From: a virus
DNA length: 64,000 nucleotides
IMG/VR virus record: IMGVR_UViG_3300050821_004356
Location: 32,001 to 96,000 of that record
Direction: 5' to 3' (one strand)
This document shows, piece after piece, positions 1,217-18,941 of the stretch; position 1 is the first letter of the stretch; every line of letters begins with the position of its first letter. The position numbers and the translations under genes were made by a program. The notes under the pieces were generated by a model that did not search any database, had not been told where the DNA came from, and saw only the letters and a list, made by a program, of their open reading frames with translations.

Positions 1217-1672
1217 TCATTCCTCGTCATCTTCGGTAGCTGTAGTCGCTGGCTGAAGTTCAGTATTCTCATAGGAATTCACCTTATCATCATTCTCAAG
1301 ACTTGTCAAGTGATTTTTTACAGTTTCTAAGCCGACGCAATACTCGGCCAAGGCGTTATACGCTTCATCATATGTCGAAAAAGGACCGTTCTCCAAGGCC
1401 CATGTTTCTTCGTAGAACCAAAACGTGCCGTCCGCGTGTTCATGCAGTGGATCGGGGCCGCCCTCGAAGTTACAAACCGGTTTGCTTTTGTCGCGCAACA
1501 AGTCGGCATCGGCCAAGACGCCGAGCGGCTTCACTAGCATCAATTCCATATTGGTGGATTTACCCCTGCGATAGACGACCACCTTTTCGCTGTTTAAATT
1601 TTGAGGCAGTGCTTCGCCGTCAGCTAAGATAACATGGGCTACAATGCCGCCCTGGCCTTTAGCTACTACCAT
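1217..1672 (-). CDS. hypothetical protein
   Basis: 151 aa ORF overlapping the end of the AAA gene. Confidence 0.6.
   Translation of the reverse strand: MVVAKGQGGIVAHVILADGEALPQNLNSEKVVVYRRGKSTNMELMLVKPLGVLADADLLRDKSKPVCNFEGGPDPLHEHADGTFWFYEETWALENGPFSTYDEAYNALAEYCVGLETVKNHLTSLENDDKVNSYENTELQPATTATEDDEE
1281..1309 (-). promoter_or_regulatory. sigma70-type promoter
   Basis: TTGACA-17 nt-TAAGGT with extended -10 TG on the minus strand. Confidence 0.6.
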
Positions 1673-2870
1673 TATTTTTCTCCCTCTTTTCGACCATCAA
1701 AGCCTGCTGTAAATCAGCTATCGTCATACGCTTATCAAGGTATTTCTGTGGGCAGGTGCCTTCGAAGAAGCGGCTGTACAACGTTTGTTTTTGCTTGTCG
1801 TTGGCATACGTGATACATAGTTGTAAGTCAACTCTGCCTGGGCGGATCAAAGCGGTGTCTAAACTCTCTTTGTGGTTCGTGGTCAGGATGAAGATCGCGC
1901 CGTATGGGGACAACAGACCGTCCATAACGTTCAAAAGACCGGATAACGTAACACCGTTTTTATCTTTTGATGCTTTTGTCTTTTTCGTGCGGCTATGTGA
2001 TGCGTGAACCCCGTCGACATCTTCGACAATTATGAACGAGTTCGGTTCGACAGTCTTGGATGACTCCATCAAAGATGTATCGGTCATATCCGCTAATTTC
2101 AAAATATAAATATTGGCATTGAATTTTGCCGACAACCCCGCCACCAAACTAGTTTTGCCCGTCCCCGGAGGCCCATAGAACAAAAATCCCTTGCGGTATG
2201 GTATACCCATTTCCGCATACCATTCTTTTTTGGCTTTAAACTCGACGATTTCTTGTATTACTTGATCCTTGTCTTCTTCGGGCAAAATAACAGTGTTGAT
2301 CCCACGGGGCTGAAAAGCGTGAATCTCCTGCCATTCACCCCAAGAACCCCAAGCATAAAGTTCAGGTTTCTTTTCTTCTTGCTTGACGAACTGATTAAAA
2401 ACATCGTCCATTAATTTTCGAAATATATCCTGCTTCCGGCCTAATGTCTTTAGTGTTATACTCTCCGAACGAGTAGTCATGGATATACCGCCCGCCATTT
2501 TAGCTTTCTCTTCCGAACGAAAAAATGTTGCAGACAGAACTCTCCCTCGGTAAAGCATCCAATGATGACCAGGTGCTGGAACAACTGCGTACGACCGCGC
2601 GCCTTTGTTGTATACATCCAGGTGTCGGGTACGTTTCATAATGCGTTGGTTTTCCAACCACAGTTTAGTCCAATAGTATGCTTTTTGGTCGTCGGTGACC
2701 GTTATGGTTACGGTTGTTTGATGGACTATCCAGGCCCAAATTTTAGCCGGTATAGAACGAAGCGCCGCAATAACGCTGCCAAGGGCCATTAATAAAATGC
2801 CGCCGCTCGCGAACTGATTCGGATTGTGCAAAATAGATGTGTAAACCGCGTGAAGAAGCTCTCGTATCAC
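1659..2870 (-). CDS. BCS1-like AAA+ ATPase with N-terminal membrane anchor
   Basis: N-terminal TM (NQFASGGILLMALG), BCS1_N-like segment (PAPGHHWMLYRG), Walker A GPPGTGKT, Walker B IIVEDVD, VTLSGLLNVMDG, TTNH and ALIRPGRVD. Confidence 0.85.
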   Translation of the reverse strand: MIRELLHAVYTSILHNPNQFASGGILLMALGSVIAALRSIPAKIWAWIVHQTTVTITVTDDQKAYYWTKLWLENQRIMKRTRHLDVYNKGARSYAVVPAPGHHWMLYRGRVLSATFFRSEEKAKMAGGISMTTRSESITLKTLGRKQDIFRKLMDDVFNQFVKQEEKKPELYAWGSWGEWQEIHAFQPRGINTVILPEEDKDQVIQEIVEFKAKKEWYAEMGIPYRKGFLFYGPPGTGKTSLVAGLSAKFNANIYILKLADMTDTSLMESSKTVEPNSFIIVEDVDGVHASHSRTKKTKASKDKNGVTLSGLLNVMDGLLSPYGAIFILTTNHKESLDTALIRPGRVDLQLCITYANDKQKQTLYSRFFEGTCPQKYLDKRMTIADLQQALMVEKREKNNGSS

Positions 2871-5872: not shown

Positions 5873-6135
5873 TACGTTTCTGTGTTTCTCGCCATATCAA
5901 TCAAGGCCAACTTATTCTCAAGACTGGCGTTCTCTTTACGCAGCTGATCCAATCCTTCGGACAAGACCGTCCACATCGCGCGAACCTGTTCTTTGTACTC
6001 GTTTTCATCCTTGGCGTCTTGCGTGGTTTCGTCCGACCAGTCCTCGTCTAGTTCTATTGGCTCGGCTTCACTGTCGATAAACCCTTCTACGAATCCTTGA
6101 GCGTACACAATTATCGAAATTTTATGCGAATCCAT
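5872..6135 (-). CDS. acidic hypothetical protein
   Basis: coupled ORF. Confidence 0.55.
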   Translation of the reverse strand: MDSHKISIIVYAQGFVEGFIDSEAEPIELDEDWSDETTQDAKDENEYKEQVRAMWTVLSEGLDQLRKENASLENKLALIDMARNTET

Positions 6136-6481
6136 TTGATCCCTCGTCTAAACCCATATTTCTTCTCTTTTTCTTAATTTCATCTTGCTCTCTCTTCCAA
6201 ATTTCGTGATGGTTTCTAAAATAGTTTGAGTTGGCCAAGTTTAAGTTCATAAAGGTAATAGCCGAATACAAATCATGGCAGGTGGCGCAAACGTCCCCTA
6301 TGTTGGGAGCAGCGTACGTAGTGAGTCGAAGAGACGAAATTGGCCATTTACAGTACGGATTGGCGCATTTCTTAGTGAGCAGGCGAAATAGGCCGTCCAG
6401 CATTTGGACATTTTTAAGCACAATTTCGTTCGCGCCCTCTTCCCCGATCTTCCATTCCAACTTGCGGTTGGCGAAGGGCAT
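6122..6481 (-). CDS. hypothetical Zn-binding protein
   Basis: CANPYC and CATC; TAATG coupling. Confidence 0.55.
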   Translation of the reverse strand: MPFANRKLEWKIGEEGANEIVLKNVQMLDGLFRLLTKKCANPYCKWPISSLRLTTYAAPNIGDVCATCHDLYSAITFMNLNLANSNYFRNHHEIWKREQDEIKKKRRNMGLDEGSNGFA

Positions 6482-7005
6482 TAGCTATTTATCCGGCGTA
6501 CCCAATCGACAAAATCTTCTTTCTCTTCTGGTTTGGCTACGGTAACATTGAACGCATGCGTCACAAACGACGTTTTATACGCTTGGAGTAAAGAGTTTTC
6601 TTCAGATTGGTTCACGGCGCTAAGGGTGTTAGGCCCAAAATTCCCATCGACTGTTACATCAGAAAATGTAGGGGCCAAAACCGCTTGAAGTATTCTAATG
6701 GCCGTACCCACTCCGAACAAAACGCCCAGATCGAACAATTTGTTCGCCACGATCTGAGACTCGATTTGCGAATAAAGAGTTTTCCAAAAATGTTCTTCGT
6801 AGTACGCTATAGCTTGATCGGGCGTTAAGTCCTTGATCACGACCCCGGGCAAGTCTACTGCAGTGATGCCGTATTTCGTGCCTATGAGTTCGCCTTGCCC
6901 GATAACTCCGCTAGACCAGTTCGCGTGGTCGTGGGGGCTGTCTTGATATCCGCCTTCGTGCTCGGGATCGATTGTAATGAGTACCGCCGTTCTAAAGTCA
7001 GCCAT
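6481..7005 (-). CDS. endolysin, glycoside hydrolase family 108
   Basis: HEGGYQDSPHD, TKYGIT, LFDLGVLFG, VDGNFGPNTL, C-terminal WVRRI. Confidence 0.9.
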   Translation of the reverse strand: MADFRTAVLITIDPEHEGGYQDSPHDHANWSSGVIGQGELIGTKYGITAVDLPGVVIKDLTPDQAIAYYEEHFWKTLYSQIESQIVANKLFDLGVLFGVGTAIRILQAVLAPTFSDVTVDGNFGPNTLSAVNQSEENSLLQAYKTSFVTHAFNVTVAKPEEKEDFVDWVRRINS

Positions 7006-7006
7006 T

Positions 7007-7642
7007 TTATTCTCCTAGTTCATACGTGCTAAGTTCCGCCACGCAAGTGAATTTTGTGCCTTGGAACTCAAAACTTTTGTCTACGTGATAGTGACCAAAG
7101 ACCCACTCTTCCGGAACGTGCGCGTCTAACATCACTTGCAGCGCCTCGGCTGTTCGAGACATTGTGCAATCGGCCTTTGCTGCGAAGTAATCACCGGACA
7201 AAGAGTGAAGCATAATCTTCGCGGCATTTGAAGGTGCTTCGTGAGAGACCACAAACCTGGGTTTAACCTGTTTGTAAAGGTCGATTGCCTCTTGAAGTTC
7301 CGTATAGCTGAGCTCTTCGTCGGCCCACCAGCTGACGCCCGGGGTGCGCCAGATACGGTCTATGGAGAACGCGCCAGCTAGAAAGAATAACTTGTCCTCT
7401 GGTAGGTATCCGTAATCGCCCGCGTAGCCTACCGTCGACCTGCACTTCGCCGGGTCATCGTGGTTACCACGAATCCACTTGTGATCACCATTCGTCTGAA
7501 TGTCTTTGTGGAGGCCTGGGGTGCCAGCGAATCCGATACCCATGTCACCAATTTGAAAAGTTCGCTGTCCTGCGTACTTCTGACGCAGCATCTTCTGATA
7601 CCGGTCGGTATGACCGTGAACATCCCCTATAACTGTTATCAT
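7007..7642 (-). CDS. calcineurin-like metallophosphoesterase
   Basis: GDVHG, GDMG, GNHD, SHEAP, FGHYH. Confidence 0.9.
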   Translation of the reverse strand: MITVIGDVHGHTDRYQKMLRQKYAGQRTFQIGDMGIGFAGTPGLHKDIQTNGDHKWIRGNHDDPAKCRSTVGYAGDYGYLPEDKLFFLAGAFSIDRIWRTPGVSWWADEELSYTELQEAIDLYKQVKPRFVVSHEAPSNAAKIMLHSLSGDYFAAKADCTMSRTAEALQVMLDAHVPEEWVFGHYHVDKSFEFQGTKFTCVAELSTYELGE

Positions 7643-8229
7643 TGGTTTTCCTCTATTGGGCCGCGCGCTTGATATTTATCGGGATTCGCAATAAACTTGT
7701 CGAATTCTACTGGCATAAGATTCGTGTACTCGCAAGAAAACAGACGTTGCCAGGGATTCTTGAGTCGTCTCATAAAATCAGCGCCTAGCAGTTTCTTATC
7801 GCGTTCGATGCGTTCGGGGCTAGAGAATCCGTGCCAGATGTTATGCAAATGCCCGTGGATGTTCAATTCGCATCCGTCTGCAAGCGATGTGCTCGGCTCG
7901 TGAGTCAGCCACATGCTACGGAATTTCAAGCCATCGCACGCGAAGTCAAAACCGTGCTCCATCCACCACGAGCAGCTATGTTGGCGATCATGATTGCCGC
8001 GTATCAGTATCTTACGACCCGGCCACGCTCGTATCATCCACTCCCAGTCCGCATACTTCCCTATGCCCACGTCACCTAGATGTATCAACGTGTCTTCTGC
8101 CTTCAACGTGTTCATCATGTTTCGATGTATGATCTCAGAAAAGTTTGGCGGCCGCTGGCAATACGTTTGCATCGCGGTGTGCTTTAAGTGACTATCCGAA
8201 AACAAGTAAAAGCTCATAATTTTATCCAA
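7639..8229 (-). CDS. calcineurin-like metallophosphoesterase
   Basis: SDSH, HLGDV, GNHD, THEP, HGHLH. Confidence 0.9.
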   Translation of the reverse strand: MDKIMSFYLFSDSHLKHTAMQTYCQRPPNFSEIIHRNMMNTLKAEDTLIHLGDVGIGKYADWEWMIRAWPGRKILIRGNHDRQHSCSWWMEHGFDFACDGLKFRSMWLTHEPSTSLADGCELNIHGHLHNIWHGFSSPERIERDKKLLGADFMRRLKNPWQRLFSCEYTNLMPVEFDKFIANPDKYQARGPIEENQ

Positions 8230-8338: not shown

Positions 8339-8620
8339 TCACAGTTCCGCCCCCTCAGGCCAGCGACTTTTAAACGCTTGTTTTTCGTCTATACAACCTG
8401 GGCACCGATCAAAGGCCACGTCTATGGCCACGTTTAAATCATCCTGGGAAGACAGTATATGTGCGTTTACCGGGATTGTTTTTAAATGTTTCGCGCACTT
8501 TACAAAATACTCATTACCGACGGGGTTAAAAGAAGACGCTGGAACTACCCACAAGGTGCCTCTGCGGTCCACCCAATTCGAAAAAGACGAGTCGTGCCTG
8601 AGATTATAATAAGCCATCAC
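8339..8620 (-). CDS. hypothetical protein
   Basis: coupled ORF. Confidence 0.5.
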   Translation of the reverse strand: MMAYYNLRHDSSFSNWVDRRGTLWVVPASSFNPVGNEYFVKCAKHLKTIPVNAHILSSQDDLNVAIDVAFDRCPGCIDEKQAFKSRWPEGAEL

Positions 8621-8961
8621 CTTTTCCTCAAATATTTACATATGCGTTCCGTTATATAGCCAATATGGTATGCTGGTGTTTCCCCTTTCAGTTTAATACC
8701 GACAAGTTTCATCATACTTTCAACAACGTGGAACGCCTCGTGGGCCGCTGTTCCAATAGACGCATCGGGGTTTAAGAACACGAAACAAACTTTTCCACCC
8801 GCATATATCGTAATCGCATCCGCTTCGCTGTCGCTATCATCAGCCAAATCTGCGATGTCTGAATACTTCTTGATAGATTTTTCTATATCGTCCGTTATTT
8901 CTACGTGGACGGTGAAATCAGAGAATACTGGAAATTTTATGAGCTCGATTCTATTTTTCAC
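8617..8961 (-). CDS. HExxH-motif hypothetical protein (zincin-like)
   Basis: AAHEAFHVV followed by E-x-P-A-Y. Confidence 0.6.
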   Translation of the reverse strand: MKNRIELIKFPVFSDFTVHVEITDDIEKSIKKYSDIADLADDSDSEADAITIYAGGKVCFVFLNPDASIGTAAHEAFHVVESMMKLVGIKLKGETPAYHIGYITERICKYLRKR

Positions 8962-9632
8962 CTTGCACTCCCTGTATACTGGTCGTATTGAATATTCACG
9001 ATCTTCTGATAGTATTCGTACATCATTTCAGGCACGTACTTCTTTTGCAAAGCACTAGATAGATGCAACGTGACTGTATCCTTATCCATCGCCGCGCCGG
9101 GATGCCATCGGTATCCTTGATGGAACACAGGTCTGATGCCCGCTTCCTTCAAAGCGTGGGCAACGAAGACGTCCTCGGCAGCTGTTTTGATACTACCAGC
9201 TTCCGCAATGATTGTCAAGGCCTTTTTAGATAGCCAATAACCGGCCCCACCTGAGCAAAATTCGATTCGTTCAGGCTCAAATCCCGAGACGTTGACGTCT
9301 GCGTTTTCGCCTCCAAAATAGTCGTGACGCTGAAATCCACTGAAAAGGAACCTGTATGGATTCACCAATGTATCTACGTCGCATTTAAAAACACAATCAT
9401 AATCGTGTGCTAAGGCCCAACGGCAGATTGATTGGGTTTTTACGGATAAATCACCGTATCCGTCATCGACGGTAAGTTGAACCTCGTCTTCTTCTAGTGA
9501 CTGAGCTAGCGGCCAGCCAATGAAAAATTTGTGTTCTACGATAAATAAATCCTTCAACCACGTTTCATGTTGGGCTTGATGTTTATCTCGGTCGCGGTGA
9601 CAGGACTCAATGGCAATTAAGAGACGCGTCAT
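8958..9632 (-). CDS. GT31/fringe-like glycosyltransferase
   Basis: DGYGDLSVKT, FKCDVDT (DxD), FCSGGAGYWLS, AEDVFV. Confidence 0.8.
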   Translation of the reverse strand: MTRLLIAIESCHRDRDKHQAQHETWLKDLFIVEHKFFIGWPLAQSLEEDEVQLTVDDGYGDLSVKTQSICRWALAHDYDCVFKCDVDTLVNPYRFLFSGFQRHDYFGGENADVNVSGFEPERIEFCSGGAGYWLSKKALTIIAEAGSIKTAAEDVFVAHALKEAGIRPVFHQGYRWHPGAAMDKDTVTLHLSSALQKKYVPEMMYEYYQKIVNIQYDQYTGSAR

Positions 9633-10414
9633 CTGGTTTCTACCTCGGGGAGACGGTCAACTTTGTACTCCACAATCGGTTTTTTAAACTGCATCTGCGC
9701 GTCTTGGTGAGAAGCTATGTGAGCCTCTTGCATATACTCCAAAGTCGAGGCCGGATGCCTTATAGCTTTAAAAAACTCAGGACAAATGGTGTCTCGATGT
9801 ACTTTCGGATACCTAGGTAGATTAAGGTCCGATGTATTGCTAGTGTGGCGTCGAACAACCAACATGCGGCCTGGATCAGCTATCGCCAACTGGTCCGCTA
9901 ATCGCGCCCTTCGAGAAAAAACGCTATCTTCTCCGAAAGAAACATCTGGATAAGGGTGTTCCCGCCACCACGTTTTATCGTAGCACTGACTAGACCCAGA
10001 CGCAAAATACGGTGGACCGCCTGCGTTACGATAAAATAAACCAGTAGCCTCGTCGTAAATTATACTAGTATTGTAGCCTGTCACTGCTTTACCGGATTTT
10101 AATAGCCGCTGCACTTGGTCTTGAAGGCGGAACGGGGAGCTCCAATCGTCATCGTCTAGATTCGCGATGATTTCGCCGCGCGCTAGTTCTGCACCTAAGT
10201 TGCGCTTTGCGCCTGTTGGCATTCGTCTATCGAGATAAACCCACCGTATTCGATTATCATCTGGATATACCGAAGGCCGTCCGAAGCTACTATCGTCAAC
10301 AATTATAAGTTCAACGTTTGGGTATGTTTGCTGCATAAAGCAACGGATTGCCGTTGGCACATACTGGGCGCGGTTATATGTCGGCATCACTAAGCTAACT
10401 AGCGGGTGGGACAT
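9629..10414 (-). CDS. GT2 glycosyltransferase
   Basis: VSLVMPTYNR, ELIIVDD, KRNLG, LDDDDW, GED. Confidence 0.9.
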   Translation of the reverse strand: MSHPLVSLVMPTYNRAQYVPTAIRCFMQQTYPNVELIIVDDSSFGRPSVYPDDNRIRWVYLDRRMPTGAKRNLGAELARGEIIANLDDDDWSSPFRLQDQVQRLLKSGKAVTGYNTSIIYDEATGLFYRNAGGPPYFASGSSQCYDKTWWREHPYPDVSFGEDSVFSRRARLADQLAIADPGRMLVVRRHTSNTSDLNLPRYPKVHRDTICPEFFKAIRHPASTLEYMQEAHIASHQDAQMQFKKPIVEYKVDRLPEVETR

Positions 10415-11264
10415 TCGGAGCTCCTGAATGAGTAGTCGAAATCTTGGGCGTCCATGATTCGATAATTGCTTTTGCTACGTTTCCAGTCCTATCAATATAG
10501 CTTAACGCTTTTTGATAGTTTTCTTCAATCACTGCCTGCTTCTGGGCATACAGTTCCGGCGTTAAGCCATGTATTATTTCTACTAACTCTTTCATGCTAT
10601 CGAAGTGTAGTATACCGTCCTTATTGAAAAACTCCCCAATATTAGGACAGCCCCAGTAGATTGGTAGAGTCTTAGTTGCAAAGGCATCGAGCAGCTTTTC
10701 GGAAAAATAGTTGTTATGTTGCGCGTTCTCCATAGTGATAGTGTATTGAAAAGGCACTAATAAGCTGTGCTTGGTCGCGAGATAAGGTGGTGATTTATAC
10801 TTTGTGACTGGCAAAGGCACAGTCCACTTTTTATTTTGATGGCATGGAATCGTTGCGGGTAAATAATTATATACATCTAGTCGATAGTTGTGCCCGTAAC
10901 ATGAATTTTTAGAACTTGTTATAAAAGACACTTCGAATTTCTTTTGCGACGTGTCGGGCTCCTTGGCCCACACGCTCGCCATCGGGAACAACTTGGCATT
11001 CGCGCATCGGCTCAAGACTTCTTGATCCCACGTCAAAATGAGGTCGTAGAATTCGTGATTTCTAATAAGCTTTTCTTGGTTATCAACAATTTCCCTCGGC
11101 TCTGTGCCCCAAAAAACACGGTAAGGCTGTTTATCTTCAAAATTGAAGCAGTCCACAGAAACGCTGACACCCCAATTAAATTCAGGCAGGTTCAATTCAA
11201 AATTACCATATGTGACGGCCTTGTACATTTTTTGTTCCCTCATCCAATCTGCTCGTTCGCTCAT
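10395..11264 (-). CDS. GT10-like alpha-1,3/4-fucosyltransferase
   Basis: ITMENAQHNNYFSEKLLDAF...PIYWG alpha-1,3-FucT motif. Confidence 0.85.
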   Translation of the reverse strand: MSERADWMREQKMYKAVTYGNFELNLPEFNWGVSVSVDCFNFEDKQPYRVFWGTEPREIVDNQEKLIRNHEFYDLILTWDQEVLSRCANAKLFPMASVWAKEPDTSQKKFEVSFITSSKNSCYGHNYRLDVYNYLPATIPCHQNKKWTVPLPVTKYKSPPYLATKHSLLVPFQYTITMENAQHNNYFSEKLLDAFATKTLPIYWGCPNIGEFFNKDGILHFDSMKELVEIIHGLTPELYAQKQAVIEENYQKALSYIDRTGNVAKAIIESWTPKISTTHSGAPNVPPAS

Positions 11265-11926
11265 CTATTTTTCTCGTACATGTTCTGCATCCACTTAGAT
11301 GCTGGGTTATAAGTCTCGAAATTACCAGGCTCGCTGTGGTAATGCCAAGAAATTTCTCTTTGAAATCCAAGAATCTTCCCAGCCGCAATCCCACGTTTAA
11401 TACGCGGCCCTAACGACTGCCCGACATACATATCCTCAGTCCAACGACCGGGATCGGTGGCCACAACTATCTCAGCTGCCTTGCGAGATACAAAATATCC
11501 ATAACCACCGGATGCCCAAGGATAGAAGTTAGGGACCGCTTCTCCATACCAGTCAAGAGTAAAAGTTGTGCCAAGCATGACGTTGCCCGTTTCGAACAGT
11601 CCAAAGTAATCGTAGTTCTCGAAGTGACACTTCATCAAACGTTCGGGGATCAAAAAAGTGTCATTGTCCGCTAAAAATGTATAATCGTATCCTTGTTGTA
11701 TAGACCACCGCAAAATCGCATGAGTCTTATGCTGTAAATGCTCATAATCGTCTCGCGTAGGGATTTGAACTGTACCTTCTACGGCGTTGTTCAGTGCGCG
11801 GTCGTACCCAACGAAGAAAAGCAAATCAGCCCCGACAACGTCCTTACCCCATGTTTCTAAAATAGCTTGGTGCGCGCCTCGATCCGAATCCCAGACACAC
11901 GATTTAATAGCGATTAAAGTTCTCAT
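11261..11926 (-). CDS. GT31/fringe-like glycosyltransferase
   Basis: AILETWG, DDYEHLQHKT, LADNDT, WASGGYGYFVS, EDMYVG. Confidence 0.8.
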   Translation of the reverse strand: MRTLIAIKSCVWDSDRGAHQAILETWGKDVVGADLLFFVGYDRALNNAVEGTVQIPTRDDYEHLQHKTHAILRWSIQQGYDYTFLADNDTFLIPERLMKCHFENYDYFGLFETGNVMLGTTFTLDWYGEAVPNFYPWASGGYGYFVSRKAAEIVVATDPGRWTEDMYVGQSLGPRIKRGIAAGKILGFQREISWHYHSEPGNFETYNPASKWMQNMYEKNR

Positions 11927-12669
11927 TTAAACTTACCATGTTTCTCGTACATCTCGTACTGCCAACCGCAACCGGGAAAATATGATTCGCTGTTGTGAAC
12001 ATCCCGGTAATGAAAGGATGCGTTGTTCCACAAATCATCGAGATTGGTGGCCCATATCTCTCCCGATTCAATCGCAGGACCTAAGGCCTGACCGGTAAAA
12101 GGCCCAATGTCCCAATGGCTAGGCGTTGCGTTCAAAACTATCTCAGCCGCTTTGCGACTTAAGAAATAGCCTACGCCGGGATTTGGATACGGATAGACCC
12201 TCCAATCGGACGTTGGGTTACGCGTTGGGCTGTGCGGCCACATCTGGTACGTGGTTCTTGTGCCAATTGGCGTGTCGAGCGGGAAGAAGCATCCAGAGAT
12301 GTCATACCTGGCGAAGTCTAGCGCCATTAATTTGCTAGGCACCATAAAGGTGTCGTTCTCACATTCGAACGTGAAATCATATCCTTGTTGAAGCGACCAA
12401 CGAAGATTTTCCTTTATATTTTTTTGCCAATAGTCTATGCAGCATCCTTCAACACACTGCCACCAAGGGTGCTCGCATGTCTTCGGCTGCTCCCAATCGA
12501 TTAGCACCTCGTCAGGTTTCGGTTGATAATCGGGCGAACGACGGCCGACAAAGAATCGCAAGTCGGCACCAGCTGCCGCGACGTCTTTGCCCCAGGTGCT
12601 CCGAATAGCGTCATGATTACCGTTTTCGGCGTCTCCTTGACAACTACAGACTGCTATAAGAACTTTCAT
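11923..12669 (-). CDS. GT31-like glycosyltransferase (divergent)
   Basis: AIRSTWG, CENDT, GVGYFLSRKAA; paralog of neighbours. Confidence 0.7.
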   Translation of the reverse strand: MKVLIAVCSCQGDAENGNHDAIRSTWGKDVAAAGADLRFFVGRRSPDYQPKPDEVLIDWEQPKTCEHPWWQCVEGCCIDYWQKNIKENLRWSLQQGYDFTFECENDTFMVPSKLMALDFARYDISGCFFPLDTPIGTRTTYQMWPHSPTRNPTSDWRVYPYPNPGVGYFLSRKAAEIVLNATPSHWDIGPFTGQALGPAIESGEIWATNLDDLWNNASFHYRDVHNSESYFPGCGWQYEMYEKHGKFK

Positions 12670-13862
12670 CTAGACGACCACAATAAATATCTGTCAATAA
12701 CACTAGCGACATATCTAATATCGTCTGCATCGAGTCCTTGGTGAATCCCTATCATAAAGCCATCGCGGGCCAAACGTTGGGAAATCGGATACTGTTCAAT
12801 TAGTCCTGGGAAAAGTTTCCTATACGCAGGACTTTCCAACAACGGAAACATATAACGGGTCTCCACGCCGCTTTTTTCTAAAAACATAAGCAACTTTTCT
12901 CTATCTACACCTGGCTTACAAGTCATTGGAAACATCATGTAAGCGTGCGTAAAGCCCTCGGGAGTATATGGAAGCCGTAGGTATTGCTGCTGGGGCGATA
13001 GCAAACTTATCAACAAATTAGCGTTGAGTTGTCGTCTCATTTCATTTTGTTCGAACCGCTCTAGTTCTGACAGGGCTATAGCCGCTTCAAGTTCTGTGGC
13101 TCTGTAGGAGTAACCTATTCGATCAAACTTGAATCTGCGCTCGATGATATTTTGAAGTGCGGAGCCCGACAAGCCGTCATCGGCGTCGATGTTTGTATAG
13201 ACAGAATCCCGGCCGTGAGCCATCAGTGACCGACACAACTCAGCTATCTTATCGTCGTTGGTCGTAACCAGGCCACCAACCCCTCCGACTACGTGGTGAT
13301 TGACGTACGTACTGAAACACGCCGCGTCCCCGAAGCTGCCTACTAATCGACCTCTGATGCTAGAACCTACAGCTTCACAAGAGTCCTCGATAACCTGAAG
13401 CTTGTGGTTTTTAGCGATCTCCATAATATAATCCATATCAGCTGGTAAACCGAACAGGTGTACCGGGATGATGCAACGCGTTCGCGACGTCAGCTTCGCG
13501 TATATCGCGGATGGCCTCATGTTATACGTGATTGGGTCCACGTCGACGAAGACGGGCACTAGGTTATTCTGGATGACGATGTTACTTGTGGCGATGAACG
13601 TTGTTGCCGGTACAAGCACCTCGTCGCCGTCTTGGTATCCATGTGTTTCCTTCAGCGCAGCCAAGGCGACTTGAAGCGCCGAGGTTCCGCTATTCATGAA
13701 GATGCCATGCTTGCAGCCGTGCATCAACGAGAACTGGCTTTCGAATTTTTGCGTGAAGAAGCCGTATGACAACCGATTGTTGTCCAATGCGGCGTTTACA
13801 TATTCTTTACCTTTGTCGCTAATGTTTAAAGTACCTAATGTTATCTTACGCTGTTGTACCAT
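12666..13862 (-). CDS. DegT/DnrJ PLP family enzyme, ColD/RfbH-type (His in place of the catalytic Lys); putative GDP-4-keto-6-deoxymannose 3-dehydratase
   Basis: NSGTSAL, GDEVLVP, PVHLFG, IEDSCEA, FSTYVNHH (His where aminotransferases have Lys). Confidence 0.8.
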   Translation of the reverse strand: MVQQRKITLGTLNISDKGKEYVNAALDNNRLSYGFFTQKFESQFSLMHGCKHGIFMNSGTSALQVALAALKETHGYQDGDEVLVPATTFIATSNIVIQNNLVPVFVDVDPITYNMRPSAIYAKLTSRTRCIIPVHLFGLPADMDYIMEIAKNHKLQVIEDSCEAVGSSIRGRLVGSFGDAACFSTYVNHHVVGGVGGLVTTNDDKIAELCRSLMAHGRDSVYTNIDADDGLSGSALQNIIERRFKFDRIGYSYRATELEAAIALSELERFEQNEMRRQLNANLLISLLSPQQQYLRLPYTPEGFTHAYMMFPMTCKPGVDREKLLMFLEKSGVETRYMFPLLESPAYRKLFPGLIEQYPISQRLARDGFMIGIHQGLDADDIRYVASVIDRYLLWSSR

Positions 13863-14758
13863 TCTATTGTCCTTGACAGCCCTGCTTCCAGCAAGGTGTT
13901 TGCTTCAAATCCAAATTCTTTAGCTCGACTAATATCGAGAACACGGCGAGGCTGGCCATCTGGCTTGGATGTATCCCAAAATATACCGCCTCTAAATCCT
14001 GAGAGCACCGTTATTTTCTGCGCTGTATCAAATATGCTGACTTCTCGACCTGAGCCCAAGTTAACAGGTTCCGCTTTATTGTACCGCTCCATTGCTAGTA
14101 TGATAGCATCGGCCGCGTCCTCGACGTATAGAAAATCACGAGTAGCTTTCCCGGTTCCCCACAATACGATATGCTCTTTGCCAGCGTTTACTGCGGTTGC
14201 TATTTTACCAATCATCGCAGGGATAAAGTGGGAGTCTTCTCCGAAATTGTCGCCTGGGCCGTACAGGTTCGTCGGTAACAAGTGAATGATATTCATGCCG
14301 TACTGCTGGCGGTAAGCCTGACCCATCGTAAGCAAGGCTCTCTTGGCTACGCCATATGCGGCGTTAGAGCCTTCTGGATATCCGTTCCACACATCTGACT
14401 CTACCAACGGGACCGCTGCGTCTCGGGGATACTCACAGGCACTGCCTATTTGGACAAACTTCCGAATCCCATAGGCTCGCGCACCCTCGATCAAATTCAT
14501 ACCTATCATCAAATTATCATGAAAGAACTTTCCTGGTAGTGCGATATTAGCACCGATGCCGCCAACTGCGGCCGCTAAGTTGATAACAATCTCAGGTTCC
14601 ATCCTTCGATACATTTGATCCGCTTCGTGAAAATATCTAAGGTCGTGGGTTTTTAGTTTCGGAACAAGAATATCGTAACCACCGTGTTCCCATAAACGTT
14701 GAACGACGTGCTTACCGAGAAAACCGTCGCCACCGGTGACCACAACTCTAGTGCTCAT
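13841..14758 (-). CDS. fcl: GDP-L-fucose synthase / ColC-like epimerase-reductase
   Basis: TGGDGFLG, AAAVGGIGAN, GSACEYP, YGVAK, PTNLYGPGDNF, SHFIPA, KPDGQPRR. Confidence 0.9.
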   Translation of the reverse strand: MSTRVVVTGGDGFLGKHVVQRLWEHGGYDILVPKLKTHDLRYFHEADQMYRRMEPEIVINLAAAVGGIGANIALPGKFFHDNLMIGMNLIEGARAYGIRKFVQIGSACEYPRDAAVPLVESDVWNGYPEGSNAAYGVAKRALLTMGQAYRQQYGMNIIHLLPTNLYGPGDNFGEDSHFIPAMIGKIATAVNAGKEHIVLWGTGKATRDFLYVEDAADAIILAMERYNKAEPVNLGSGREVSIFDTAQKITVLSGFRGGIFWDTSKPDGQPRRVLDISRAKEFGFEANTLLEAGLSRTIEWYNSVR

Positions 14759-15462
14759 AATCCACCCTCGTAGACGGAATGAAGTGAAATCATTTGTTGA
14801 GTATCATAAACGGCGGGACAGTTAGCAATATGCGATGTAATCACCCGGTTGCTTTTGCGAGGTGGGTCATCCCTGTCCAAATTTGTATACCGCTCATCGT
14901 GGCTAAGTTTGATTCCGTTTGCCTCCATCACATCACCTGTCCATTCATCGTAATTCCATTTGGTAACTGGCGCGTTGATTAAGAATTGCATCGCGCGCTT
15001 GCTTAACCAGAAACCGGGGCCACCACCCAAAGCTGTACGCTCGTCATTTGCGGTACCGAGATAATCGAACTTTTCGAATCCACTTTCCAATAGTCTTTCT
15101 GGTACAACGTATGTATCGGTAAGGCATTGGAAAATGTAATCGTATCCGTTTTCTAAAGCCCAGCGACAAGCTTCTCTAAGCTTAAAGCTTGCGTGCGAGT
15201 AACTATCCGGGATACGCAAAGCGACTTCATCCTCTCGAAGAACGTAAGTCCGAATGTCTGTGTCTTCGTATAGTCTTTTGTAATACAGCCAATCACTATT
15301 GTGCCAAGACTCTATCGCGTAGTTGTCTCCTATAACCGGCGTGCCGTCCCCCATAAAGAACTTATAGTTCTCAACATTTTTCAACCATGTATCGCGCATC
15401 ACTTGATTCTGACCGCCTACGGCGTGCTTGACACAGCTTAGAATAGCGATCAAGAATTGCAT
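14755..15462 (-). CDS. GT31-like glycosyltransferase (divergent)
   Basis: [29 protein letters not shown]. Confidence 0.7.
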
Positions 15463-16412
15463 TGTAGTTCTGCGTCCATCATCATCTTTACTAATTCACG
15501 AAATTTGAATTTTGGTTCCCACCTGAGAATACGTTTTGCTTTCGATGGATCGCCGAGCAAGAGATCGACCTCTGTTGGACGATAGTATTTCGGGTCTATC
15601 GCGACATATGGACGCCAGTTCATACCAAGATAACCGAAAGCTTCATCGAGAAAATCTCGCACCGAATGCGTCTCACCGGTGGCGATAACGAAGTCATCCG
15701 GAGTCTGTTGCTGCATCATCAAATACATCGCTTCGACGTAGTCCCCGGCGAACCCCCAGTCACGTTTGGCATCCAAATTACCGAGAACAAGTTCGTTTTG
15801 AAGACAGCGCGATATGCGGACAGCTGCTTTAGCAATTTTTCGGGTCACGAATGTCTCGCCACGTCTCGGGCTTTCATGATTAAAGAGAATTCCATTGCAA
15901 GCAAAGGTACCGTATGCCTCGCGGTGATTTATTACTGTCCAATAAGCGAACTGTTTAGCGATGGCGTATGGGCTACGAGGATGAAACGGGACGGTCTCAT
16001 CAACAGCTGCCCCATAAATCCCACCGTATAATTCACTAGAGCTTGCTTGATAAAACTTAATGCCCTTCCCTTTAATAGCCTCTAGGATATTAAGAGTTCC
16101 TATAGCAGTGGATTCGGCCGTGTAAACCGGGATGTCGAACGAAACTCTAACATGCGATTGAGCGGCCAAGTGGTAGATTTCATCCGGCTTTACTGTGTTG
16201 ATGATATTCGTTGTCGAACTGCCATCAGTAACATCCCCATAATGCAAGTATAGGCGGTCGAATATGTGATCGATGCGCTCGGTATTAATGCTGCTCGACC
16301 GGCGGATGATACCATGCACATCGTAGCCTTTTGACAGTAATAGCTCGGCGAGGTACGATCCATCCTGACCTGTAATGCCAGTGATAAGAGCTCTCTTCAT
16401 AAGCGCACCCAC
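15450..16412 (-). CDS. gmd: GDP-mannose 4,6-dehydratase
   Basis: [56 protein letters not shown]. Confidence 0.97.
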
Positions 16413-17191
16413 CTATCGGGTATCAAATCCTTGGTGTCTGTTCCATTAACAAACCACTTCCTGGGGAATACGCAAACACGACCTGGGTAGGCTCCCGCCC
16501 AGTCATCACCTAACCACGCTCCCCACCAACTGAACGATGAATTTGCCCCGATGCCGTGACGGCAGCAAGACATCAGATACAAATCATCGTGCATTGACGA
16601 TCCTCGAAAACTAGCTATTTCTAAATCCGGAAAGAGGAGCTTACAGTAGTCAGGGTCGTCGCTGAATACATAAAATTTAGGATTTTGAACTTTCTCTCGA
16701 ACGTATTCAATCGCTCGTTGATAGTAATTCGTGTCCTCCAAATTGCCGTGAACCGCGCTTGTACTCGGGTTAGTGTAGTCCCCGCGCCTTACGTGGATAA
16801 AGACGCTTTCTTTTTCGGAGAGTGCGTTGCCGGTGCCAACTGTCAACGGACTAGGATCGGTTTTCAATGTCAGTTCTGTACGTATAAAATACGAATAGTC
16901 CTGGAAGTACTTTTCGCTTTGCCAATAGCCACAAAGATACGCGTTAGACGGTTGACCTAATGCTTTGCCATCAAAATTAAACGATGCTTCGGTGTATAGA
17001 CTAGTTGCACTAATCGGGTTGACAAGCGGGTTGACAAGCTCTTCGTTGACGTTGTATTTATCTAAGGCATAATCCCGGGTTGACCTCGCCCAATGAAACT
17101 GAACAGGCTCATTACGACGAAAAGACAACGCGCGGCCGAATGCGTACATGAACATCTGATTTCCTAAGCCGCCTGTCAATCGAACGATCAT
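16397..17191 (-). CDS. GT11 alpha-1,2-fucosyl/colitosyltransferase
   Basis: [39 protein letters not shown]. Confidence 0.93.
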
Positions 17192-17901
17192 GCTACCAGT
17201 ATCCCCTTCTTGAAAAGATTGTCAAAATCGCCACCGACCTCTGCGGTCATCTTCATATATTCCGGTTTGTACGGCATACTGACCTTTGGATAGTGTGATG
17301 TGCCTAAAACACCAGGTGTAAAATTTGTAGCCTTGAGCATGTGACTATCGATCATCGGTGCAAGCGTTTGACCCGTCTGAAGGTCTTCGGCCCAAAAAGT
17401 TGGCGGTGTAGAACCAACAACGTCGGCTGCCCTCCGACTTAAGAAATAGCCCCAACCGCCTGATGCCCAAGCCCTGCACTCTGGGTAGCTACCGTACGCG
17501 TCGGTATACGAAAACGGCGCGCCGCCAGGTAGTTGATTGTTTTTAAACCAACCTGCGTAGTCGTACCACTTAAAATCAGACATCAAAAATGCCCTCGCGT
17601 TGATATACGTATCTGTGTCGCAAAGGAAAACTCGCTCGAACGTCTTGCCCATAACCCATTGACATATGCGCCTGGTCTTGATGGGCAGCGATTCGTAGTC
17701 ATCCCGACAGTCGACGACCACTTCGTTTGAAACGTACCGACGGCAACGGCGGGTATCTTGCTGTGTCGGGTCAGTACCAACGAAGAAATAGGTCTCTACA
17801 CCGAGCGCCTTAAGGTCGCGAGCCCAAGTGGACCTAATTGCGTCGTGGTAGCCCCTGTCGAGGTCCTTGTGGCAGGATTTTACGCAGACGGCTAAGTTCA
17901 T
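17188..17901 (-). CDS. GT31/fringe-like glycosyltransferase
   Basis: AIRSTWA, DDYESLPIKT, CDTDT, WASGGWGYFLS, WAEDL. Confidence 0.8.
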   Translation of the reverse strand: MNLAVCVKSCHKDLDRGYHDAIRSTWARDLKALGVETYFFVGTDPTQQDTRRCRRYVSNEVVVDCRDDYESLPIKTRRICQWVMGKTFERVFLCDTDTYINARAFLMSDFKWYDYAGWFKNNQLPGGAPFSYTDAYGSYPECRAWASGGWGYFLSRRAADVVGSTPPTFWAEDLQTGQTLAPMIDSHMLKATNFTPGVLGTSHYPKVSMPYKPEYMKMTAEVGGDFDNLFKKGILVA

Positions 17902-18941
17902 CCTTGTCTCGATCTTGTGACGGCATCCATCGGCAATATGCTAGTTGCATCATAGATTGTTTTTCTAAACGCGTCGTTTGCTGCTTTTTCTACTTGCTTC
18001 TGACTTTCAAATAGAATGTCGTTTGCCAATTTCTGCATGTATGACGGACGACCTATAATCTGATCGACCAAGTCTCTACCTTCCTGCAAAGGTAATTGAA
18101 AACCGGCCGCATGAAGATGTCCACCCCCGTTCCTACGTTTAGCAATCGCTGAAACATCGATATCGCCAACCGAGCGCAACGAAAATTGAATCACGCCGTC
18201 ACCACGTTCGAACCAAGTGATCCCGACCTGCGATTCGTTCGCTAGTTCGTGTCCGATTTCAGAACAACTAATGTACTGAGCGTTTGCGATGCCTGCGGTC
18301 AGGCCGTCGATTGTGCCAGGCTGTCGATTCTTGACGACGTTGCCAACATAGTATTCGATTTGACGAAGAGCACCGGAGCCATACGTTACTGCCTCTTCGA
18401 TATTAATATTTGCTAGTGCGTCCCACGCTTCTACGGTATAGGGCTGGGTCATCAAATAGGCCGCAACCTCTTTTGCATTTGGTAGTGCGTTGCGCCATAA
18501 GTCGCGATCTTCGACGTAGTTCACCCACCACGGACGCTGGTGAGATGTGTTGGTCCAGCGGACACCATTCAATTCATAAGGCTCTGCTTGATTGCGGTCT
18601 TTGCCGAATAGGTAGTCCCACGCCAACCCTGCGCCTGATCTATTCATGTCGAACGTGGCGTAAGACACACCAGCCAGGTTTGCTTGAGCGGTCAGGTGAT
18701 GATCCAAAATTCTAAAAGACTTTGCGACAGACGCGAGATTATCATTCTCTAACCTCGTCCTGAAACTAAAGTCTGTCATCAATACGTCTTTGCCTCGAAG
18801 AGACTGAATCAAGGTGTCAATATATTCGGCCGATTTGCCGTGGTCGAGGAAAATCATCTCGGCCTCGGGGTACTTCTTTTTGGCGATGTAGGCGGCCGCG
18901 AAACCGTCGGGACAGCTTGCATGAGAAAGTATAACGTCCAT
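17898..18941 (-). CDS. DHH/DHHA1 phosphoesterase (NrnB/RecJ-like)
   Basis: CPDG, TDFS, LDHH, FSLRS, GGGHLHAAGF. Confidence 0.9.
   Translation of the reverse strand: MDVILSHASCPDGFAAAYIAKKKYPEAEMIFLDHGKSAEYIDTLIQSLRGKDVLMTDFSFRTRLENDNLASVAKSFRILDHHLTAQANLAGVSYATFDMNRSGAGLAWDYLFGKDRNQAEPYELNGVRWTNTSHQRPWWVNYVEDRDLWRNALPNAKEVAAYLMTQPYTVEAWDALANINIEEAVTYGSGALRQIEYYVGNVVKNRQPGTIDGLTAGIANAQYISCSEIGHELANESQVGITWFERGDGVIQFSLRSVGDIDVSAIAKRRNGGGHLHAAGFQLPLQEGRDLVDQIIGRPSYMQKLANDILFESQKQVEKAANDAFRKTIYDATSILPMDAVTRSRQG

Follow-up and report, generated by a model that had tools for sequence, protein, structure and literature searches.

An eleven-gene glycosylation cassette in an uncultured soil phage pairs a predicted GDP-colitose pathway with a viral clade of GT31-like glycosyltransferases

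Here we describe a glycosylation cassette of eleven genes in an uncultured soil phage. The cassette lies within a 64,000-base stretch of DNA, hereafter the window, that corresponds to bases 32001-96000 of a 111,567-base-pair (bp) IMG/VR viral record (IMGVR_UViG_3300050821_004356). It encodes the GDP-mannose 4,6-dehydratase Gmd, a ColD-type 3-dehydratase, a synthase of the Fcl/ColC family and a set of glycosyltransferases (GTs), namely one member each of families GT11, GT10 and GT2 and five GT31-like paralogs. The three sugar enzymes are predicted to make guanosine-diphosphate (GDP)-activated colitose, and a blood-group-like glycan branched with colitose or fucose is a reasonable expectation for the product of the transferases. 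We tentatively favor the proteins of the phage's own virion as its destination and regard the host envelope as the serious rival.

Results

Three enzymes match the route to GDP-colitose

The cassette genes are called g1 to g11 by rising window coordinate, and all lie on the minus strand (Table 1). Gene g9 passes the equivalog test for Gmd (TIGR01472, 493.5 bits against a cut-off of 415, residues 6-317) and is 59% identical to the Gmd of cyanophages and 57-71% identical to the Gmd of related phages. Its open reading frame (ORF) is listed from a GTG at 16412; the true start may instead be the ATG at 16400, which together with the upstream stop makes an ATGA overlap.

The best solved relative of g6 is the GDP-perosamine synthase of Caulobacter (4e-58), whose catalytic lysine pairs with His189 of the phage protein. 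A change from lysine to histidine is the main difference between 3-dehydratases and aminotransferases (PMC8987622), and on this change we rejected the perosamine-type aminotransferase assignment suggested by the best PDB match. Colitose genes for comparison were taken from Escherichia coli O55:H7 CB9615. Against ColD from this strain g6 aligns end to end at 27% identity, with the N-H-H of the phage protein on the S-H-H of ColD, and phage His189 pairs with ColD His188 by count along the alignment. Histidine is kept at the position of the catalytic lysine in seven phage orthologs of g6. In g6 and these seven orthologs we found neither a four-cysteine [2Fe-2S] motif nor a C-x-C-x7-C pattern, the only invariant cysteines being Cys162 and Cys182; the four-cysteine motif is carried by E1 and SpnQ and not by ColD (PMC8987622). 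These features point to g6 as a ColD-type 3-dehydratase, with histidine in place of lysine and without the Fe-S motif. Because Gmd is the sole 4,6-dehydratase in the cassette, the substrate of g6 is probably GDP-4-keto-6-deoxy-D-mannose.

The third enzyme, g7, scores 283.8 bits against the NCBIfam Fcl model (NF047922), under the equivalog cut-off of 500, which makes it a member of the Fcl family and not a canonical Fcl. It matches the GDP-fucose synthases of the PDB at 7.8e-69 and is 35% identical to E. coli Fcl and 31% identical to O55 ColC. Since colitose is 3-deoxy-L-fucose (PMC12723683), an Fcl-type enzyme acting on the product of ColD would give GDP-colitose. Genes like g7 occur together with ColD in three of the viral loci compared (L050, L052 and L061) and occur in three others (L028, L036 and L080) with no ColD gene within the stretch compared, so that GDP-fucose may be made too. 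We therefore read g7 as a probable GDP-L-colitose synthase and possibly also a GDP-L-fucose synthase.

In the pathway that we envision, Gmd would convert host GDP-mannose to GDP-4-keto-6-deoxymannose, g6 would take off the 3-hydroxyl with the help of His189, and g7 would epimerize C5 and reduce C4 to yield GDP-L-colitose; if g7 also accepts the non-dehydrated intermediate, it would yield GDP-L-fucose as well. Together g9, g6 and g7 appear to make up the known GDP-colitose route. No ManC-type nucleotidyltransferase is encoded anywhere in the genome, and the pathway would therefore begin from GDP-mannose of the host, which must also supply the uridine-diphosphate (UDP) sugars.

GT11, GT10 and GT2 enzymes and the predicted glycan

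Gene g10 passes the GT11 family test (PF01531, 106.8 bits against a cut-off of 23.9). It shares 35% identity with GT11 genes of cyanomyoviruses and, from end to end, 37% (1.1e-31) with the GT11 gene in the O-antigen cluster of E. coli O55. We take the latter to be WbgN because of its position beside wzy. WbgN of E. coli O55 is an alpha-1,2-colitosyltransferase that also accepts GDP-fucose and that uses only Gal-beta-1,3-GlcNAc as acceptor (PMC12723683). Gene g3 passes the GT10 test (PF00852, 29.4 bits against a cut-off of 23.9) with a match confined to its C-terminal half. It matches the Helicobacter pylori alpha-1,3-fucosyltransferase 2NZW at 1.3e-10 across residues 164-258, the donor-binding half, and retains the donor-site motif E-N...Y-x-[ST]-E-K. 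For g2, the NCBIfam matches cover only the N-terminal half and all fall under the equivalog cut-offs; over that half g2 is most similar to WcaA, TuaG and PglI, and orthologs of g2 in relatives are 49-59% identical.

GT10, GT11 and GT31 are families that build the type-1-chain H and Lewis structures. In the scheme that we propose, the GT2 enzyme and the three GT31-like proteins with canonical motifs (g1, g4 and g11) would use UDP-sugars of the host to make a short backbone with probable beta-1,3 linkages, and the GT11 and GT10 enzymes would cap or branch this backbone with alpha-1,2- and alpha-1,3/4-linked colitose or fucose, so that the end product would be an H/Lewis-b-like epitope. Fusions of GT31 to GT11, of GT2 to GT31 and of GT31 to GT31 are present in other viral contigs and show that these modules work together. 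An earlier note on this DNA had proposed a branched glycan of fucose or colitose resembling Lewis or blood-group structures. The hallmarks of ColD, the WbgN-like GT11, the GT10 and GT31 families and a GT6 gene in relatives are all consistent with that proposal, with the linkages predicted from sequence. We infer in the same way the donor and linkage specificities, the structure of the glycan and, above all, the acceptor.

GT31-like proteins form an almost purely viral clade

Three of the five GT31-like proteins (g1, g4 and g11) score above the PF01762 cut-off. The AlphaFold model of g4 (predicted local distance difference test, pLDDT, 95.7) has as its top Foldseek matches B3GNT2, B3GalT5, B3GalT6, C1GalT1 and Manic Fringe, all of them GT31, and a profile of the GT31-like family finds B3GNT2 (2e-7), B3GalT5 (3e-7) and C1GalT1 (3e-6) in the PDB. 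The other two, g5 and g8, have no Pfam match and are assigned to GT31 by paralogy, at 29-37% identity to the first three (BLASTP 1e-37 and 4e-26). The DxD and ED motifs are both canonical in g1, g4 and g11. In g5 the DxD position reads E-N-D and there is no ED, and in g8 the corresponding positions read L-T-D and Y-D. All of these variant states are conserved in orthologs, which argues that g5 and g8 represent conserved sub-families and not decaying copies; they may be specialized transferases or non-catalytic partners. Orthologs of g1, at 47-61% identity, close the cassette in relatives.

The family is represented by 377 clusters at E <1e-30 in a library of 1.8 billion proteins. Viruses account for 94-100% of its neighbors in the ESM Atlas, among which GT31-GT11 fusions occur in giant viruses (Nucleocytoviricota) and some Verrucomicrobiota. 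None of 50,697 GenBank phage records holds a GT31-like gene, and a search of 185,579 species genomes with a single peptide pattern, of limited sensitivity, returned one match, to a phage contig within an archaeal metagenome-assembled genome (MAG). This contig of 99.9 kilobases (kb), labeled 'uncultured archaeon' (CABMCB010000059.1, locus L084), encodes a helicase (60%), a PD-(D/E)XK protein (59%) and a Gmd (64%) together with GT31 and GT11 genes, and is most likely a relative of this phage lineage that was mis-binned into the archaeal MAG. On these searches the GT31-like family appears to be large and almost purely viral.

A gap-free run of soluble enzymes without export machinery

The eleven ORFs fill window positions 8958-17901, each junction overlapping by 4-22 bases, and the overlaps extend to the neighboring genes on either side, at 8617-8961 and 17898-18941. 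These overlaps, with the Pfam, NCBIfam and paralogy assignments, bear out the earlier description of a gap-free run encoding Gmd, an Fcl-like and a DegT-family enzyme, GT11, GT10, GT2 and five GT31-like proteins. No membrane segment was found in the eleven proteins, in which the highest 19-residue Kyte-Doolittle mean is at most 1.25 except in a Rossmann strand of the short-chain dehydrogenase/reductase (SDR). Nor did the whole 111,567-bp genome yield a polytopic membrane protein: no ORF has more than two hydrophobic 19-mers, and the phage therefore encodes neither a flippase, polymerase or ligase nor an initiating phosphoglycosyltransferase or a Gtr-type protein. The hydropathy of the cassette and of the genome thus agrees with the claim that transmembrane segments, a flippase and Wzy are lacking, and the absence of membrane proteins supports assembly of the glycan in the cytoplasm without phage-encoded export machinery. 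The combination that defines a Wzx/Wzy-dependent O-antigen cluster, in which an initiating phosphoglycosyltransferase, a flippase and a polymerase accompany the transferases, is not present here.

Translationally, the cassette is chained within a long co-directional block that runs from the helicase and primase genes to the endolysin. Promoter- and terminator-like sites of its own are not enriched in it (23 vs 22.6; 17 vs 16.4), and its guanine-plus-cytosine (GC) content matches that of the rest of the genome.

The minus-strand gene at 17898-18941, which overlaps the first cassette gene, encodes a DHHA1-domain protein of 347 amino acids (aa) (2.5e-8). It flanks the cassette slot in the related genomes G003 and G004 and in locus L011 and is missing in the related genome G001. 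The protein may be a RecJ/NrnA-like nuclease or, speculatively, a nucleoside-diphosphate phosphatase that eases inhibition by GDP and UDP. The DHHA1 gene and a 114-aa ORF were considered as members of the cassette and rejected, as the two adjoin each other ahead of a smaller cassette in G003. Synteny in relatives thus shows that the borders first drawn around the cassette were right and that these two genes are its flanks.

The cassette occupies a slot whose content is swapped

An IMG/VR scan with the alignment of the paralogs gave 99 relatives in 78 loci, which local BLAST divides into two groups: many loci with a single GT31-like gene, and one lineage (L006-L014) with the fixed order GT31-GT11-Gmd-SDR-ColD-GT31(s)-GT10-GT2-GT31. 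We compared four genomes that share core genes, the record studied here (G000) and the related G001, G003 and G004. For the major head protein, identity is 79% with both G003 and G004 and 78%, over a partial match, with G001, and the portal protein is 61-70% identical among the relatives compared. In G000, G003 and G004 the cassette sits in the same slot, after the DHHA1 gene; in G003 that gene is followed by a homolog of the 114-aa ORF and then by a much smaller cassette (GT31, GT11 and GT2-like) with no sugar pathway. Other variants in relatives include a separate RmlC-type 3,5-epimerase and an SDR that replace g7, a split thiamine-dependent E1-like enzyme (E1_dh and Transket_pyr), and FkbM-type and other methyltransferases (Table 1). 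Their presence suggests that variant cassettes make C-branched dideoxy sugars, O-methylated ones, or both. Relatives thus exchange the content of a slot that itself stays fixed.

One gene family, found in nine related loci, is exemplified by a GT6 gene (L006:228-935, plus strand; PF03414, 1.2e-19), GT6 being the family of the blood-group A and B transferases. In relatives this gene immediately precedes GT31, GT11 and Gmd; it has no counterpart in G000. When the conserved non-enzyme neighbors in the 78 viral loci were surveyed, the recurrent families sampled were GT6, endonuclease VII-type nucleases, portal and terminase, along with several that have no Pfam match, and no carrier or acceptor gene emerged among these neighbors. 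The endonuclease VII-type genes are free-standing and scattered across the virion region (L004:6377-7048 and 8559-9101, equivalent to G000:98377-99048 and 100559-101101), and a further copy lies inside the glycan cassette of the relative L010 (L010:9408-10016); they are probably mobile nuclease genes.

Genome setting

The 111,567-bp record has direct terminal repeats and is rated 100% complete. Virion and packaging genes on the plus strand, among them those for the terminase, the portal, the major head protein and a collagen-like fiber protein, span the record ends. A long minus-strand block holds genes for replication, nucleotide handling and lysis: a UvrD-type helicase, a primase-polymerase, an exonuclease, two metallophosphoesterases and a GH108 endolysin. 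Among GenBank phages the nearest cultured relative by terminase is a Tunturiibacter phage, at 27% identity, and the phage is distant from cultured phages. A nucleotide search with the cassette against the 50,697 GenBank phage records gave zero matches, as did a search with the portal protein for a prophage or host in the 185,579 genomes.

A tyrosine-recombinase (Phage_integrase) gene lies outside the window at G000:28249-29178 on the minus strand (locus L095; 30.3 bits against a cut-off of 27.1). It has homologs at 41-50% identity in G001, G003 and G004, and the lineage may be temperate despite its terminal repeats and large tRNA set. Between the cassette slot and the GH108 endolysin are two adjoining genes for calcineurin-like metallophosphoesterases (window 7007-8229, minus strand), both conserved in relatives at 60-70% identity. 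Further along the same strand, at window 1659-2870, a gene encodes a 403-aa protein with BCS1_N (1.1e-22) and AAA domains. BCS1 is a mitochondrial protein translocase, and finding the BCS1_N/AAA pair in a phage seemed unusual.

Table 1. Genes of the glycosylation cassette, in window coordinates, and examples of variant genes at related loci, in locus coordinates
Feature	Position	Strand	Evidence
g1, GT31-like glycosyltransferase, 224 aa	8958..9632	-	PF01762 1.8e-6, above cut-off; DxD (D-V-D) and ED
g2, soluble GT2 glycosyltransferase, 261 aa	9629..10414	-	PF00535 4.9e-21
g3, GT10-type (alpha-1,3/4) fucosyl-/colitosyltransferase candidate, 289 aa	10395..11264	-	PF00852 7.8e-7, above cut-off
g4, GT31-like glycosyltransferase, 221 aa	11261..11926	-	PF01762 7e-8, Fringe 8e-4; DxD (D-N-D) and ED
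g5, divergent GT31-like paralog, 248 aa	11923..12669	-	No Pfam match; 37% identical to g4, BLASTP 1e-37
g6, putative ColD-type 3-dehydratase dependent on pyridoxamine 5'-phosphate (PMP), 398 aa	12666..13862	-	PF01041 3.7e-92; His189
g7, Fcl/ColC-family epimerase-reductase, 305 aa	13841..14758	-	NCBIfam Fcl model 283.8 bits
g8, divergent GT31-like paralog, 235 aa	14755..15462	-	No Pfam match; 33% identical to g1, 4e-26
g9, GDP-mannose 4,6-dehydratase Gmd, 320 aa as listed	15450..16412	-	TIGR01472 493.5 bits; PF16363 8.3e-131
g10, GT11 alpha-1,2-fucosyl-/colitosyltransferase candidate, 264 aa	16397..17191	-	PF01531 1.6e-30
g11, GT31-like glycosyltransferase, 237 aa	17188..17901	-	PF01762 7.2e-8; DxD (D-T-D) and ED
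Example variant genes in L006-L013	L011:3884-5004 and 5970-6530; L008:6090-6782; L013:6319-6969		RmlC-type epimerase/SDR, E1-like and methyltransferase variants

Discussion

The virion as a plausible target

The destination of the glycan is the weak point of our interpretation. We tentatively favor a model in which it is attached in the cytoplasm, during lytic growth, to the phage's own virion proteins, and we give this model slightly less than even weight. The glycan would be placed on fiber-type or other surface proteins of the particle. The related genome G001 (111,514 bp, with terminal repeats) carries its cassette on the strand of the virion genes, between the packaging genes and a pair formed by a head protein gene and a homolog of a 357-aa protein. 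The G001 cassette also overlaps the homolog of a protein of 277 aa that, in G000, closes the virion module (G000:25772-26605, plus strand, outside the window; L003:5772-6605). All four genomes, which are complete or nearly so, encode the 277-aa protein, and metagenomes yield 110 homologs of it, all unannotated. It has an invariant E-x-D motif and no significant Pfam match; its structural model (pLDDT 94.9) adopts the GT-A fold, and the PDB matches that Foldseek lists for it are glycosyltransferases without exception. On the strength of this model the protein is a candidate ninth transferase or initiator. It could act as the first transferase, with the cassette as the variable, elaborating part. 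We find this division of labor attractive as a model, with one transferase fixed in the virion module and the elaborating genes exchangeable, and infer it from the arrangement. The hypervariability of the cassette between relatives is as expected for an exposed glycan under selection. Taken together, its placement in the lytic block, its location among virion genes in G001 and the conserved GT-A gene lend mild support to a virion target.

There are precedents. The virions of mycobacteriophages are glycosylated, according to the summary of Freeman et al. 2023 in PMC12363180, and soluble transferases modify collagen-like surface proteins, as with SgtA and BclA3 (PMC7157674). The GT31-GT11 fusions of giant viruses may be counted here as well. 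We found no homology that links either the mycobacteriophage precedents or SgtA and BclA3 to this phage.

The 357-aa protein itself is encoded at window 60340-61413 on the plus strand, ahead of the collagen-like and fiber genes, and contains an ice-binding-like beta-solenoid domain (PF11999, 1.1e-35). A 1609-aa structural protein (G000:6687-11516) and several large proteins of relatives share its N-terminal 220 residues, which are therefore a common module.

A number of results weigh against the model we favor. A proteome-wide search that included the capsid and tail proteins found no Ser/Thr-rich windows or C-terminal tails. The motifs h[ST][GA]xT, [ST][GA]xT, GxT and N-x-S/T, compared between virion and non-virion proteins with shuffles, show no enrichment beyond composition (z <=2.2), and across the four genomes the fiber and collagen-like genes do not co-occur with cassette content. 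No recognizable protein-initiating transferase is present, and mycobacteriophage records are absent from the phage matches of the GT2 protein g2, the only transferase searched in this way. For the ColD, ColC, GT11 and GT10 enzymes, the nearest characterized homologs all act on lipid-linked glycans of the bacterial surface. The cassettes of G000, G003 and G004 lie amid early and replication genes and not virion genes, and the integrase-family gene makes lysogeny and host conversion possible. As to the sugar assignment, identity between g6 and E. coli ColD is only 27%, the best solved relative of g6 is an aminotransferase, and g7 is slightly nearer to Fcl than to ColC.

In view of these results, the earlier note's claim that the glycan is built on virion proteins rather than on host O-antigen is not established. 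The lack of membrane segments does not discriminate between the two, because bacterial transferases of these families that act on O-antigen or lipooligosaccharide (LOS) are soluble or peripheral too, and the phage carries an integrase-family gene. The acceptors that the note had put forward, a Thr/Ser-rich fiber and the collagen-like protein, find no support: the fiber is a repetitive protein with Ser/Thr at only 21%, G-x-T triplets are few in the collagen-like protein, which has no detectable homolog in G001 despite the full colitose cassette there, and sequons are not enriched.

Other destinations for the glycan

Remodeling of the host envelope comes close behind the virion as a target and is a serious rival, albeit one that we consider doubtful on balance. 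In this scenario the transferases would act at the inner face of the host membrane on undecaprenyl-diphosphate (Und-PP)-linked O-units, on the LOS core or on capsule precursors, and the host's own flippase, polymerase and ligase would export the product. The benefit would be superinfection exclusion, avoidance of re-adsorption by progeny or serotype conversion, during infection or lysogeny. All characterized relatives of the ColD, ColC, WbgN-type GT11 and H. pylori-type GT10 enzymes serve lipopolysaccharide (LPS) synthesis and are soluble or peripheral, g2 is nearest, across its N-terminal half only, to the Und-PP-glycan transferases WcaA, TuaG and PglI, and the integrase-family gene is conserved in relatives. 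The closest cultured analogs, the Gmd/Fcl/GT11 clusters of cyanomyoviruses, are likewise annotated as cell-wall modification genes (PMC9602691). However, the phage has no initiating phosphoglycosyltransferase, flippase, polymerase, ligase or Gtr-type membrane protein of its own. The cassette also differs from typical conversion morons in that it shows no sign of its own promoter or terminator and is chained into a lytic block running from replication to lysis. Its GC content is that of the phage. In G001, moreover, it sits within the virion gene block, and an almost purely viral GT31-like family is a poor fit with enzymes tuned to the O-unit acceptors of a host.

The position of the cassette in G000, amid genes for a helicase, a primase-polymerase, the DHHA1 protein and metallophosphoesterases, also raises the idea that its transferases glycosylate modified bases of the phage DNA and so evade restriction. 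Phage DNA glycosyltransferases that use varied sugars are known (Pyle et al. 2024, as cited in PMC12619734). Yet a thymidylate-synthase-like hydroxymethylase (PF00303) is absent from the complete genome, in a search whose control was positive in 10 of 14 genomes, so that no hydroxymethyl-pyrimidine handle would be made. Base modification would hardly call for as many as eight transferases and a branched deoxyhexose glycan, and the location of the G001 cassette in the virion block does not fit it either. To our knowledge, GT31, GT10 and GT11 are not families of DNA glycosyltransferases, and GDP-deoxyhexoses are not DNA donors. DNA glycosylation is unlikely, and we give it very little weight indeed. 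Some other cytoplasmic acceptor, such as a host protein, a small molecule or a free oligosaccharide, with the effect of disabling a host function or serving as a decoy, has a slim chance. The failed hunt for an acceptor and the full solubility of the enzymes are all that speak for it; we know of no precedent for a hypervariable cassette of eight transferases in such a role, and the gene neighborhoods show no carrier or export function.

Comparison with known systems

The colitose O-antigen of E. coli O55, made by Gmd, ColD/WbdK, ColC/WbdJ and the GT11 enzyme WbgN, follows the same three-enzyme logic from GDP-mannose. It shares with the phage cassette the ColD hallmark (His188 there, His189 here, no Fe-S), a synthase of the Fcl/ColC family and a GT11 enzyme at 37% identity. 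In contrast to the O55 cluster, which has wzx and wzy, the phage-borne set lacks Wzx, Wzy and an initiating transferase, its sugar enzymes are 27% and 31% identical to ColD and ColC, and its backbone transferases are GT31-like where those of O55 are of GT2 and other families.

Cultured phages, for the most part cyanomyoviruses, do carry Gmd, GT11 and DegT-family genes. T4-like cyanophages (P-SSM2, S-SCSM1, ACG-2014f and relatives) have 'LPS / cell-wall modification' clusters that likewise group Gmd, Fcl, GT11 and other glycosyltransferases, clusters of cyanomyoviruses with Gmd, Fcl, fucosyltransferase and GT genes being annotated as cell-wall modification genes (PMC9602691). A GT6 gene is known in cyanophage P-SSM2 (PMC3516806). 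Gmd is 59% and GT11 35% identical between these phages and ours, the best cyanophage matches in the DegT family are 28% identical, one of them annotated as a CDP-sugar 3-dehydratase, and the function of the cyanophage clusters is likewise assigned by annotation. The GT31-like genes, the phage lineage and the soil habitat set the present cassette apart. Our favored model is that of the mycobacteriophages Che8, Corndog and Myrna, in which, as the accounts in PMC12363180 and PMC12619734 summarize it, soluble glycosyltransferases encoded by the phage modify its own capsid and tail proteins in the cytoplasm; according to the same accounts, some mycobacteriophages carry glycosyltransferase genes outside the core virion operon. 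Unlike these phages, the one described here has no Ser/Thr-rich C-terminal acceptor tails, and g2, the only transferase searched for this, has no mycobacteriophage match.

The GT31 enzymes of eukaryotes (B3GNT2, B3GalT5, B3GalT6, C1GalT1 and Fringe) have in common with the phage proteins the GT-A fold, an N-terminal motif ending in T-W-G, and the DxD and ED motifs. They build the type-1-chain, core 1 and poly-N-acetyllactosamine backbones that GT11, GT10 and GT6 enzymes decorate. The phage proteins differ in being only about 220-250 aa long, with no signal anchor or stem, in their 16-20% identity and separate viral clade, and in the non-canonical catalytic motifs of two of the five paralogs. 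Chloroviruses and giant viruses encode their own nucleotide-sugar pathways (Gmd and GMER in PBCV-1) and soluble, often multi-domain glycosyltransferases that act on virion proteins in the cytoplasm. These are viruses of eukaryotes, and their link to the present phage consists of structural neighbors in the Atlas, including the GT31-GT11 fusions of Nucleocytoviricota.

What is new and why it matters

Clusters of sugar-pathway and transferase genes were already known from cyanophages, and glycosylation of phage virions from the few mycobacteriophages in which it is proven. A search, judged on titles and abstracts, for papers that pair colitose with phage-encoded genes found no phage colitose pathway described, and a search combining phage, GT31, glycosyltransferase and capsid found no literature. 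Three things are new here: a phage whose colitose branch is apparently complete and includes a ColD-type dehydratase; a large clade of minimal GT31 enzymes, viral almost throughout, with none in the cultured phage genomes searched; and the swappable-slot architecture, in which content is exchanged between relatives.

At its fullest, our proposal is that a lineage of soil phages with genomes of roughly 100-120 kb coats its particles with a colitose- or fucose-bearing glycan of the H/Lewis-b type made entirely in the cytoplasm, using minimal viral GT31 enzymes, a conserved GT-A initiator from the virion module and a swappable cassette that serves as a 'serotype locus' under diversifying selection; the GT31, GT11, GT10 and GT6 toolkit would then parallel that of the animal ABO/Lewis system. 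We hold this full version with clear reservations, as a possibility. If the glycan is on the particle, the phage would have a variable surface serotype made by the enzyme families behind the human ABO and Lewis antigens, and this would bear on phage-host and phage-predator recognition in soil as well as on the debated prokaryotic or viral origin of these enzyme families. The small soluble GT31, GT11 and GT10 proteins of the cassette, together with the compact GDP-colitose pathway, are also ready candidates for the enzymatic synthesis of glycans.

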